Source: Candidatus Hydrogenedentota bacterium (GTDB taxonomy: Bacteria; Hydrogenedentota; Hydrogenedentia; Hydrogenedentales; SLHB01). From it: a stretch of 64,000 bases of DNA. Shown piece after piece: positions 19,391-24,615 of the stretch. Below the pieces are notes generated by a model. The model was not told where the DNA came from and ran no database searches. It saw nothing but the letters and a program-made list of their open reading frames with translations. Positions within the stretch are counted from its first letter, which is position 1. The number at the start of each line of letters is the position of its first letter. The position numbers and the translations under genes are program-made. Location: NCBI GenBank assembly GCA_963745075.1, contig CAVUWV010000031.1:64001-128000 (forward strand). The letters are read 5' to 3'.

Positions 19391-19692
19391 GAGTCCTCGA
19401 CGGGCGCCCTATCGAGTACTTGCCTCCCCCCCGATCCGCTTGATATAACAACCCTTGCGCCGGCTGCGGAGTCCGGGCGCGTGCCCGAGGAGACGGGAGC
19501 CACATCAAATCGGGAAAGGGTTGCGGCGAGCCAGTAGGGTCGGTCTGTGCAATCAAGGTCTTCAGTTACGGCAGGCAAAACAGGCGCGTTGGATCTTTGG
19601 GCTTGGCATCGTCGATGGGAATGAAGAATTAACGCGGCTGGAAGCCGCGTCTACTTGGGGTTTGATCATCTACACGCACAAAGGAGTCCCGC

Positions 19693-20934
19693 ATGAATAC
19701 GGTCACCGGAGATAAGGTCCAAAAAGCGGCCAAAGCGGCCTTGGAAGCTGGGGAAGGATTGTTGCGGCTGGCGCCGACGTGGGTGCCGCGGTCGTTCCTG
19801 CAACCGGGTCGCCGGTTGAAATTGCATCCCGACGATTATTACGCCTTAGGCAAAGATCGGGGCGGCATCGATGAGCGTTGGTTCGCCTCGACTACGGCGG
19901 CCGACAACGAGGGTGCGCCACCCGACGAGGGGCTGAGCTATGTGGTCCAGGACGGCGCGCGCTTCACGCTGAAGGACGCGGTCGCGAGCCTCGGCGCGGA
20001 ACTCATCGGCGACGCCATCTGGAACAAGTACAAGCGGTGGCCGGTCTACAGCAAGTTCTTCGACAACATGGGGCCTATCCCCCATCACCACCATCAAAAC
20101 GCGGAACAGGCTGCCCTAGTCGGCCGGGAAGGCAAGCCCGAATCCTACTATTTCCCGCCGCAATTGAACGCCATCGGCAACAATTTCCCGTACACGTTCT
20201 TCGGTCTCGAACCGGGCACGACGAAGGAAGACATCGTGCGTTGCCTCGACCGGTGGAACGAGGGTGACAACGGGATCCTGGACTATTCAAAAGCGTATCG
20301 TTTGAAGCCGGGGACGGGCTGGTTGGTGCCTCCGTGCATTCTTCACGCGCCGGGATCGCTGGTCACGTACGAACCGCAATGGGGCAGCGATGTGTTCTCC
20401 ATGTTCCAGTCTCTGGTGGAAGGCCGCGATGTGTGGCGGGAACTCCTGGTCAAGGACATCCCGGAGGACAAACGCGACGACCACGAGTACATCGTCAATC
20501 AGTTGGATTGGGAGTCGAACGTCGACGACCACTTCAAGGACAACCATTACCTGGAGCCCATCCCCGACGGCAACACGGAAAACGCGGGCTATGTGGACCG
20601 GTGGGTCGTCTACGGCAAGGTGCACGGCGAGCAGTTGTTCAGCGCGAAGGAACTGACGGTCGCCCCGGGAGCGAAGGTGGCGATCAAAGACAATGGCGCG
20701 TCCGGCGTCATTCTCATGCAGGGTCGCGGCAAGATCGGCAACCTGCCTTTCGAATGCCCGCAGATGATCCGCTTCGGCGAGATGACGGAAGACGAGGTCT
20801 TCATCACGGAACAGCGCGCGAAGGAAGGCTACACGGTCGAGAACCTGGGCAAGGATTGCCCCTTGGTCATGCTCCGCTACTTCGGCCCGGGCGCGAACCC
20901 GCAAGCGCCGAAGGTGGGCGATTACAAGAAGTAA
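19693..20934 (+). CDS. Mannose-6-phosphate-isomerase-like cupin protein
   Basis: GGIDERW; PHHHHQ...GKPESYYF; LHAPG; AAGGAG RBS. Confidence 0.7.
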   Translation: MNTVTGDKVQKAAKAALEAGEGLLRLAPTWVPRSFLQPGRRLKLHPDDYYALGKDRGGIDERWFASTTAADNEGAPPDEGLSYVVQDGARFTLKDAVASLGAELIGDAIWNKYKRWPVYSKFFDNMGPIPHHHHQNAEQAALVGREGKPESYYFPPQLNAIGNNFPYTFFGLEPGTTKEDIVRCLDRWNEGDNGILDYSKAYRLKPGTGWLVPPCILHAPGSLVTYEPQWGSDVFSMFQSLVEGRDVWRELLVKDIPEDKRDDHEYIVNQLDWESNVDDHFKDNHYLEPIPDGNTENAGYVDRWVVYGKVHGEQLFSAKELTVAPGAKVAIKDNGASGVILMQGRGKIGNLPFECPQMIRFGEMTEDEVFITEQRAKEGYTVENLGKDCPLVMLRYFGPGANPQAPKVGDYKK

Positions 20935-21000
20935 CCCGTTGCTTCCCAACCAGCGCCTCTTTCACATTGATGATGAACGGACTGTAAAAGGAGACGATAG

Positions 21001-22053
<1,053 letters not shown>

Positions 22054-22064
22054 GATTTATTCGC

Positions 22065-22515
22065 CCGCAGATATACGCAGATGGTCGCAGATGAAGAATG
22101 ATGAAGACAAGAAAAGGGACCCACAGACTTACGCGATAATCGGAGTTGGAATGCAAGTTCATGGGCGATTGGGCTGCGGGTTCCAGGAACCCGCATATCA
22201 GAGCGCATTCGCTGTCGAGTGTCGATTTCAAGGCGTGCCGTGCGAGCGTGAGGTCAAGTACGAGATTACGTACAGAGATGAGATTTTGGACTGTTACTAT
22301 CGCGCGGACTTTGTTTGTTACGGAGCGGTAATCGTCGAGTTGAAGGTCGTTGAGGAATTGACGGATAAGCACCGCAGCCAAGTCATCAATTATCTGAAGG
22401 TATCGGGATTGAAACGCGGAGTTTTGATGAATTTTGCGAACGAGCGTTTGGAATATGAGCGCATCGTGTTGGATTATTCCGATTCTTAATCTGCGAACAT
22501 CTGCGTAATCTGCGG
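22065..22515. mobile_element. Putative GxxExxY cassette bounded by inverted triple CGCAGAT repeats
   Basis: Left arm CCGCAGATATACGCAGATGGTCGCAGAT (22065-22092); right arm ATCTGCGAACATCTGCGTAATCTGCGG (22489-22515). Mobility is inferred. Confidence 0.55.
22091..22489 (+). CDS. GxxExxY protein (PD-(D/E)XK nuclease superfamily)
   Basis: VH..LGCGFQEPAY; RADFVC...IVELK; QVINYLK.SG...G.L.NF; 132 aa. Confidence 0.92.
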   Translation: MKNDEDKKRDPQTYAIIGVGMQVHGRLGCGFQEPAYQSAFAVECRFQGVPCEREVKYEITYRDEILDCYYRADFVCYGAVIVELKVVEELTDKHRSQVINYLKVSGLKRGVLMNFANERLEYERIVLDYSDS

Positions 22516-22531
22516 ACAGGAGGTTTTCGTT

Positions 22532-23674
22532 ATGGCGAAGAAGAAGTTGAACGTGGCCATGATTGGCTATGGGTTTATGGCGCGGGCGCATTCGAACGCG
22601 TATCTGAAGGTGAATCATTTCTTCGATCTCGACTATGAGCCGGTGCGGAAGGTGGCCTGTGGCCGGGATGCGGAAAAGGTGAAGGCCTTCGCGGATCAGT
22701 GGGACTATGAGTCCACGGAAACGGACTGGCGCAAGGCGATCGAGCGGAAGGACATCGACGCCGTCGACATCTGTTGTCCCAACAATCTGCACCACGACAT
22801 CGCCATCGCGGCGGCCGAGGCGGGCAAGATGATCCTCTGCGAGAAGCCGCTCGCCATGAACGGCGCGGAAGGCGAGGAAATGTGCAAGGCCGTCGAGAAG
22901 GCCGGTGTGCCGAACACGGTCTGGTACAACTACCGCCGCGTGCCGGCGGTGACGCTGGCCAAGCAACTCATCGACGAAGGCCGGTTGGGCAAGATCTTCC
23001 ACTACCGCGCGGTGTTTCTCCAGGACTGGACGATCTCCGAGGAGCTACCCCAGGGCGGGCAGGGATTGTGGCGATTGGACGCGGCGGCGGCGGGCAGCGG
23101 CGTGACGGGCGATCTTCTCGCGCACTGCATCGACACGGCCCTGTGGTTGAACGGCTCCATCAGCGACGTGACGGCTATGACGGAGACGTTTATCAAGGAA
23201 CGGGTCCACACGGCTACCGGCAAGAAGCAGCCGGTCGGCATCGACGACGCCTGCGCGTTTCTGGCGCGGTTCAAGAACGGGTCGCTGGCGACGTTCGAGT
23301 CAACGCGTTACGCGCGGGGACACAAGGCGCTCTATACCTTCGAGATCAATGGCGAGCACGCGTCGATCCAGTGGGACCTTCACGATTTGCACCGGCTCAA
23401 TTATTTCGATCACCGGGACGATTCGATCGTGCGCGGGTGGCGCTCGGTCCACGTCACGGACGGTGACATGCCATACATGGACAAATGGTGGGTGCCGGGG
23501 CTGCAGATTGGCTACGAACACAGCTTCGTGCATCAGGCCGCCGACTTCCTGGAGAACATCGCGAAGAACAAACCGACGGCGCCGACGTTCCGCGATGCAC
23601 TCGAAACGCAGCACATCTGCGACGCGGTTTTGAAATCAGCCCAATCGGGTTCCTGGGAACAGGTCCCCGCGTAG
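22532..23674 (+). CDS. Gfo/Idh/MocA-family oxidoreductase
   Basis: [31 protein letters not shown]. Confidence 0.92.
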
Positions 23675-23691
23675 ACCATTCAAACAACAAT

Positions 23692-23729
23692 CCGGGGAAA
23701 CCTTTTCTCAGAGGAGAAGGTTTCCCCGG
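23692..23729. terminator. Hairpin between convergent genes (terminator or REP-like)
   Basis: 13-bp stem CCGGGGAAACCTT/AAGGTTTCCCCGG. Confidence 0.6.
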
Positions 23730-23778
23730 TTCCATTCCAAAAGACGTTACTACGCGCTTCGCGGGTTCGCCCGGCCGC

Positions 23779-24615
23779 CTACCACGAATCCTGGATAAAC
23801 TTGAGCCCGTTGCGGGCGACGTGCTCTTCGCTGGGGGCCATCTTGCGCCAGATGCAGGTGGCGCCCGTCACTTCGGGGAGCCAGGCACCGAAGGCTTCGA
23901 TGGTCAGCCAACCGTCATACCCCACCGATTTCAGCGCGCCGAACGTTTCGCCCCAGTGCACGTGGTCTTCGCCGGGCGTCGCGCGGTCGTTGGCGGAAAT
24001 GTGAACGTGATTGATATGCTTCCCGCCCGTCTTGACGGAGTCGGCGATGTCCTTTTCTTCAATGTTCGCGTGGAACGTATCGTACAGAATGCCGACGGAC
24101 GTGCTGTGGATGCGGTTCACCAACTCGACGGCATCCGATTCCGCATTGAGGAAGTACGTTTCAAAGCGGTTCAGCGGTTCGACGGACAGGACAATGCCGC
24201 TGTCTTCTGCATGAGCCGCGACCTTTTTGAGGCCTTCGACACACCAGTCCTTTTCCTGATCCGTAGGTCCCCGACCGATGAGTCGGCCCACCGGCGAGTA
24301 CATGGGACCGGCCACCGCGCTTGCGCCCAACTCCACCGCTTTGTCGATGCACGTCGTGAGAAAGTCGACGGCGGCTTGACGTTCTCCGGCATCCTCGCCG
24401 ATAAGGTTCGTGCCGCCGGGCAGCACGGTGGCGACGGTTCGTTCTAGCCCGAATTCATCCAGTACGCTGCTCAATTCCTTCCAGGGCGAGCCGTCCAGCA
24501 CGAACATGGGCAACTCGACCCCGTCAAACCCCCAGTCCTTGATGTTCTTCATTACCGGCACGTGCGATTCGTTCGCCGCGGCCGTCCAGAGCAACAGATT
24601 CATCCCGATTTTCAC
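23779..24615 (-). CDS. D-psicose/D-tagatose 3-epimerase-family protein
   Basis: EPLNRFE; DTFHANIEE; H.S.NDR.TPG.DH; IEAF; GTG start at 24615. Confidence 0.85.
   Translation of the reverse strand: MKIGMNLLLWTAAANESHVPVMKNIKDWGFDGVELPMFVLDGSPWKELSSVLDEFGLERTVATVLPGGTNLIGEDAGERQAAVDFLTTCIDKAVELGASAVAGPMYSPVGRLIGRGPTDQEKDWCVEGLKKVAAHAEDSGIVLSVEPLNRFETYFLNAESDAVELVNRIHSTSVGILYDTFHANIEEKDIADSVKTGGKHINHVHISANDRATPGEDHVHWGETFGALKSVGYDGWLTIEAFGAWLPEVTGATCIWRKMAPSEEHVARNGLKFIQDSW

Follow-up and report, generated by a model that had tools for sequence, protein, structure and literature searches.

The window, by which we mean the whole 64,000-nucleotide stretch of DNA analysed here, carries a 455-bp cassette (22063-22517) in which a gene of the GxxExxY family is enclosed by inverted arms of three heptamers each. 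The cassette seems to be the gene-bearing member of a family of dispersed three-heptamer arrays. We give about an even chance to a REPIN/RAYT-like partnership, in which the nuclease would cut DNA at its cognate array while host repair would spread the arrays and, rarely, the whole cassette. The protein probably binds the three heptamers, placed on about one helix face of the DNA, and probably cuts near the arrays, which host repair would then copy to new intergenic sites. Repair by the host is invoked because the PD-(D/E)XK fold comes without joining activity. Occasionally, a whole cassette would pass into the same junction of another lineage and so renew a decaying one. The transcribed stem is predicted to cover the start codon of the cassette while the ribosome site further down stays accessible; nuclease output would thereby be kept low.

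More tentatively, and with the balance of our judgement somewhat against it, we suggest that GxxExxY genes and heptamer arrays make up a widespread, undescribed class of mobile DNA. Its driver would be a minimal Cas4/RecB-like nuclease, unaided by any transposase or integrase; each protein clade would read its own three-unit array, spread gene-less arrays in trans and re-enter the same operon junctions of other lineages after the resident has decayed. If this is right, a common class of intergenic heptamer repeats would be explained, a third nuclease fold would be added to the known partnerships of a protein and a repeat, and it would be shown that, on the time scale of families, such a cassette can be kept at an operon junction, lost from it and acquired again. 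The family would also supply a natural collection of sequence-specific nucleases of 130 aa, each gene having its target word written next to it. The flanking arrays are a candidate substrate for each GxxExxY protein, so the function is directly testable.

The cassette and its setting in the window comprise the following features.

21001..22053, + strand: upstream host gene, a xylose-isomerase-like TIM barrel (PF01261) whose stop codon lies 9 nt before the left arm
22063..22092, + strand: left arm, a 3-nt leader followed by CGCAGAT units at 22066-72, 22076-82 and 22086-92
22091..22489, + strand: GxxExxY gene, 132 aa, with a predicted PD-(D/E)XK fold of the Cas4/RecB/lambda-exonuclease type
22094..22099, + strand: coding bases that prolong the stem inwards, being complementary to 22482-22487
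22489..22517, - strand: right arm, CGCAGAT units at 22489-95, 22499-22505 and 22508-14 followed by a 3-nt leader
22518..22523, + strand: AGGAGG, which serves the Gfo gene as ribosome-binding site and adjoins the right arm on its outer side
22532..23674, + strand: downstream host gene, a Gfo/Idh/MocA oxidoreductase

Much of this agrees with a preliminary description made from the letters alone. It had recognised an inverted repeat that encloses the gene and overlaps its start and stop codons, and the coordinates bear this out: the last left unit supplies the AT of the ATG (22091-22093) and the first right unit uses the last A of the TAA (22487-22489). The arms of 28 and 27 bp that it described are also confirmed (22065-22092 and 22489-22515), with one extra base giving the bulge and one mismatch, as is the position between a sugar isomerase and a Gfo gene, with the AGGAGG just past the right arm. 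The 10-bp spacing that it gave to the heptamers holds in the left arm and fails in the right one, where the units are 10 and 9 bp apart. The build of the arrays is fixed in the family: a 3-nt leader is followed by units 9 and then 10 bp apart, counted from the outer end (76/118 arms). Hence, the bulge can be assigned to a one-base insertion in the first spacer of the left arm. The ends of the cassette are better placed at 22063 and 22517, i.e. with the leader included, and such ends are sharp, as the complementarity between arms stops at the leader in an analysis of 59 pairs. An extension of the stem past the leader, hinted at by a few loci, was not significant (p = 0.07 and 0.26). The gene is more AT-rich than its surroundings, as had been noticed, with a GC content of 47.9% (GC3 58%) against 61-62% (GC3 83-84%) in both neighbours. 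The overlap between arm and start codon is not universal among orthologues, and by eye it is missing in L004, L006, L007, L049 and L255. Upstream of the isomerase, a 413-aa ORF (window 19693-20934) has no Pfam or NCBIfam match at E = 0.001 and is likely the first gene of the operon.

The ORF matches TIGR04256 at 128 bits (cut-off 35) and PF13366 at 121 bits (cut-off 22). The latter is its sole Pfam match, and no transposase domain was found in the cassette with Pfam and NCBIfam profiles. The residues of the GxxExxY motif are G30, E33 and Y36. An alignment of 135 homologues shows no variation at G30, E33 and K85 and very little at D73, E83, Q97 and Y101; the set E33, D73, E83, K85, Q97 and Y101 is conserved in at least 90% of the sequences. 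We take its E, D, ExK and QxxxY elements, going by motif numbering, to be the PD-(D/E)XK core. The predicted structure (pLDDT 93.9) finds its best Foldseek matches in Cas4 SSO0001 (E = 6e-5), lambda exonuclease and AddA (structural superposition: Z 8.4, rmsd 3.4, 100 aligned), and a sequence search against solved structures returned nothing below E = 0.7. The model describes a minimal Cas4/RecB-like nuclease core, with a predicted intact catalytic set and no joining domain. This supports the earlier idea of a cassette made of a nuclease-fold gene and its cognate repeats without a transposase.

The gene appears to be under purifying selection (dN of 0.09 versus dS of 1.4-3.2 within genus, two pairs). 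It is the only GxxExxY gene in this genome, and the family, which is large, is present in 112 of the 133 genomes of the host class. It is rare on plasmids (8/72,556) and was not found in phages (0/50,697); a paralogue at least 90% identical resides in the same genome for 6 of 93 copies. One genome, G008, has 41 matches, many of them partial, where the others have 1-15, which may reflect a burst or a different element. PADLOC gave no match. The function of PF13366 is listed as 'Unknown' in the accessible part of PMC3424549. No description of a cassette of GxxExxY gene and repeats was found in the accessible literature searched.

Three-unit arrays occur 32 times in this genome when two substitutions are allowed, and not once in two fourth-order Markov controls. 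Thirty of them lie away from the GxxExxY gene and outside the genes that a crude ORF filter predicted, and only two are beside it. They are arranged singly, in tandem and as inverted pairs, with an inverted partner nearby for eight of the 32, in four pairs. The three-heptamer array is directional, and one arm alone is not a palindrome. The inverted pairs without a gene are as follows.

C31:36231-36366, C36:300538-300722 and C9:224845-225055: gene-less inverted doublets

Two gene-less pairs occupy operon junctions with a geometry like that of the cassette. In other genomes, the interior of arm pairs is either AT-rich and 60-900 bp long or occupied by another repeat family, and in G106 the arms surround only the 3' part of a GxxExxY gene. 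Arrays of sister species are missing here at homologous sites (sites A, D and E); among the species compared, which are too distant, no filled and empty pair was close enough to fix the exact insertion point. The preliminary description had seen no target-site duplication, and the larger sample agrees: at 3 nt or more there is none in 59 arm pairs, and at 2 nt there are two. Exact three-unit arrays are present in 75 of the 133 genomes of the class. The arrays are a repeat family of their own, patchy between species.

Several loci combine the arrays with other repeats. In L417-L420, CGCAGAT arm pairs surround a second inverted pair of the ACAGGAT type, giving a nested double hairpin of two repeat families. 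Compound arrays, each with a CGCAGAT triplet, a similar linker of about 20 bp and a co-oriented CACAGAT triplet, in that order, were seen at four places in G000.

G000 C1:335277-335347, C8:65749-65821, C12:137649-137721 and C18:36356-36428: compound arrays

A REP-like palindromic element is often found directly inside or beside arrays, as in the L240 junction and at G000 C9:224930-225010 and C15:143820-143930, and in G005 such a palindrome stands where the nuclease gene would be. Three near-identical CGCGGAT hairpin units follow each other at 203-bp spacing in G000 C36:281794-282215.

We then compared the flanks of GxxExxY genes across loci. The sample is non-random, being drawn from 41 relatives (90 of the matches), 80 metagenome loci and the Gfo loci; it contains 193 profile matches, of which 151 had enough length and flank to be scored. 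Inverted similarity between the flanks exceeded the 99th percentile of shuffles in 116 of the 151 and was absent in the other 35, so that the flanks described here are shared by most paralogues, which the preliminary description had proposed to look for. Direct-orientation similarity was found too in 72 loci, explained by the complete hairpin that many of them have at either end, and in none of the 11 scored copies at the isomerase-Gfo junction. Mapped on the protein tree for 103 labelled rows, the repeat class requires 21 changes, where 300 shuffles never gave fewer than 60; for the 73 rows of the host class alone it requires 18, where shuffles gave no fewer than 41. Words of other clades are, for instance, of the CGCAAAG, CACAGAG and ACAGGAT types. 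The repeat word follows the protein clade, which shows joint inheritance and not recognition, as kin share labels. Word and protein would travel together also if the gene were only cargo. Of the 34 genomes that have the near subfamily, 28 contain at least three arrays, compared with 30 of the 99 others (a hand tally in which kin are not independent). Among the 21 genomes without a GxxExxY match, 17 have no array. The remaining four have some, including G113 (95% complete, 12 arrays); in one of the four, a fragment of the gene is found where a contig ends, and for two a sister species carries the cassette.

Arrays that occur independently of the gene had been named beforehand as a point against the cassette, and this is partly what we find, given the 30 gene-less arrays of this genome; inverted cognate flanks are nonetheless the rule beside the genes. 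The gene-less copies favour a reading in which the GxxExxY gene is a passenger caught between two members of a repeat family that does not depend on it and that owes its movement to host processes or to a different protein. The arrays in genomes without a GxxExxY match fit it as well, and so do the arm pairs around 850 bp of other sequence (L422) and around the REP-like palindrome (L240). We consider it distinctly unlikely: about three quarters of the GxxExxY loci have inverted flanks, with an own word per clade, the gene seems to stay under purifying selection, and no other mobiliser was seen beside the arrays in the loci inspected.

A partnership between nuclease and array has several precedents in part. 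Free-standing homing endonucleases go through a cycle of invasion, decay, loss and reinvasion, and the cassette resembles them in that a nuclease gene faithful to one junction undergoes decay, loss and replacement there. It differs by having cognate repeats on the flanks of the gene and a variable upstream gene and junction sequence, and we found no conserved empty target. With insertion sequences and MITEs it shares terminal inverted repeats, sharp ends and an internally deleted derivative (the 3' gene fragment of G106), but it has no transposase and no target-site duplication. The cassette also resembles REPIN-RAYT: as far as the accessible part of PMC5581495 goes, that system too has a chromosomal gene of low copy number and mostly vertical inheritance, which is rare on plasmids and has few recent duplicates; its flanking repeat is also spread through the genome without the gene, often as inverted doublets. 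However, in the same account RAYT is an HUH (Y1) tyrosine transposase, whereas the cassette protein is a predicted PD-(D/E)XK nuclease; the REPIN unit is a short palindrome present in hundreds of copies, whereas here three directional heptamers at 9 and 10 bp are present in tens. Many divergent GxxExxY paralogues, each with its own word, may also share one genome, a further difference from REPIN-RAYT as described there. Ssn and its NTS/SRM repeats, in the part of PMC11893778 available, likewise associate a small single-domain nuclease gene with a cognate repeat on both sides, and repeat variants match nuclease variants. Ssn cuts ssDNA sequence-specifically at its repeat; it has a GIY-YIG fold and a self-contained hairpin, against a predicted Cas4/RecB-like fold and a single arm that is not palindromic here. 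Finally, ORF-bearing intervening sequences of 23S rRNA, as far as they are covered by the accessible part of PMC4990558, are about 450 nt long and end in a stem of some 28 bp that contains a bulge and a mismatch; their loop holds a single small ORF, and they show vertical retention with decay. Relative to that account, the cassette lies in an mRNA operon junction between two protein genes and not in rRNA, its nuclease-fold ORF is apparently under purifying selection, its arms come from a dispersed repeat family and there is no sign of selection on an RNA stem. The cassette would work like RAYT-REPIN and Ssn-NTS without belonging to either, and its likeness to the rRNA intervening sequences is confined to shape.

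The last likeness raises the question of the RNA. No promoter-like site was found in 19400-23900, and expression of the cassette likely comes from the host operon. The 486-nt RNA folds with a z-score of -4.16 (0/100 shuffles as good) and the arm duplex has a predicted energy of -50 kcal/mol. In the full transcript, the first two bases of the cassette start codon are predicted to be paired; before the right arm is transcribed, this codon is predicted to be mostly open. The Gfo AGGAGG is predicted to be 81-97% unpaired, in line with the earlier suggestion that the host operon is left functional.

Such a stem is compatible with arms that act in RNA, where cleavage by RNase III or by the protein itself would remove or silence the insert, as in an rRNA intervening sequence, or split the operon message. 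Besides the strength of the stem, and the resemblance in size and stem to the Coxiella intervening sequence (in the part of PMC4990558 at hand), this reading can draw on the match between arms: those of one copy match each other more than the arms of other copies in the leader, the spacers and the inner 8 nt (27 pairs, p = 0.0002-0.02). This fits pairing, but it fits duplication or conversion at the DNA level as well. Covariation in the inner spacer was present in the 27 pairs (p = 0.017) and absent in 23 loci (p = 0.55). In 99 arm alignments, mismatches that give G-U pairs number 89 on the sense strand versus 114 on the other (26 versus 34 loci), and transversions make up 217 of the 420 arm mismatches. 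Selection for an mRNA stem is therefore not seen, as sense-strand G-U mismatches are not favoured. Moreover, most arrays of this genome have no nearby inverted partner, the closest folds are those of DNA nucleases and Rfam gave no match. We thus find little apparent support for an intervening sequence at the RNA level and rate this reading as quite improbable.

We return to the partnership of nuclease and array at the DNA level, for which the isomerase-Gfo junction provides a history. We compared 69 loci of the class that contain a Gfo orthologue. In 16, a GxxExxY gene lies directly upstream of Gfo, and 15 of these 16 fall in a single Gfo clade (23 rows); none of 77 loci from other phyla (72 with at least 500 bp upstream) has such a gene. 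A protein search added four copies, one parted from Gfo by an inserted gene and one at a contig end where only the isomerase is visible, which makes 20 genomes of the class with a copy. Empty junctions, which the preliminary description had suggested looking for, exist in other Gfo clades and measure 6-17 bp. Contig ends truncate 2 of these 20 copies. Among the 18 that can be scored, 11 are intact and 7 are damaged, 4 by a split frame and 3 by the loss of catalytic residues. By eye, only arm remnants are left in L240, L230 and L226, with the L240 arms kept around a REP-like palindrome, and other members of the clade carry other inserts. A recent insertion was considered and rejected, the junction cassette being common to four families. 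Fixation of the gene at the locus across relatives had also been named as a point against a mobile cassette; this holds in so far as the gene is an old resident across four families, yet there is decay, loss and empty junctions.

In the protein tree, 14 junction copies and one from another site group together at 94/91; monophyly is not rejected, a smaller tree left the grouping open, and the deep branches among junction copies are poorly resolved. Grouping L004 with L222 is not rejected either (p = 0.14). The copies of G028 and G071 belong to a distant, unrelated GxxExxY clade with different repeats, and a single clade for all copies is rejected (p = 6e-6). G071 and G070 are of one genus (GyrB 84%, Gfo 93%), and their cassette proteins are 21% identical. 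Within genera, the protein otherwise follows GyrB, with 82-85% identity at a GyrB identity of 82-89% and about 51% at 74-78%; overall, the identity of the cassette protein correlates with that of host GyrB (Spearman 0.40). Since identity tracks host GyrB, most of the history is vertical. We had considered frequent swapping, on the grounds that isomerase and Gfo are 87-94% identical where GxxExxY is 47-54%, and largely withdrew it when the calibration with GyrB showed that the flanking genes are simply more conserved. The non-vertical cases that remain are G071 and G028 and, less firmly, G021/G032, G117 and G109. G021 and G032 are from different families and have unrelated upstream isomerases, yet their proteins are sisters (99/95), which in the tree points to a lateral move. 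No co-conversion of flanking genes was visible in 100-bp windows. Close protein relatives sit at other operon junctions. For example, L337 and L341 are sister cassettes at one other junction in two genera, with neighbours that by eye are like pyruvate dehydrogenase E2/E3, and form a second site-faithful lineage.

Damage in 7 of 18 copies is hard to maintain across four families by descent alone, from which we infer either renewal by transfer or a benefit to the host. The second option corresponds to a domesticated nuclease that acts on its cognate arrays for the host, e.g. by tuning recombination or the uptake of incoming ssDNA, as Ssn does at NTS repeats, with the spread of arrays as a side effect. 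We regard this as unlikely. It is compatible with several facts: this genome has one copy only, the gene has stayed at one junction in four families, purifying selection is apparent, the family is rare on plasmids and phages, and it is present in 112 of the 133 genomes. The damaged copies argue against it, together with the several genomes that hold remnants only, and so does the change of the surrounding host genes, as two unrelated isomerases are found upstream among the junction copies. Furthermore, the junction also collects passengers that resemble toxin-antitoxin pairs, and it seems to be a landing site for small passengers in general. What is new at this locus is the record, at one site, of long residence, decay, loss and replacement.

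The toxin-antitoxin-like pairs occupy the same junction in distant lineages (L019, L023, L024, L030, L231 and L257) and consist of DUF433 with DUF5615, HEPN with a nucleotidyltransferase, DUF4258 with an MqsA-like protein, and UPF0175 with DUF3368. In G112, an ORF without Pfam match in a 199-aa frame fills the junction (L225:323-919), and the sister species carry the cassette. Both unrelated isomerases have a heptamer-like CACGG/TACGG word a few bases before their stop codon (window 22040-22047 and orthologues), probably by chance.
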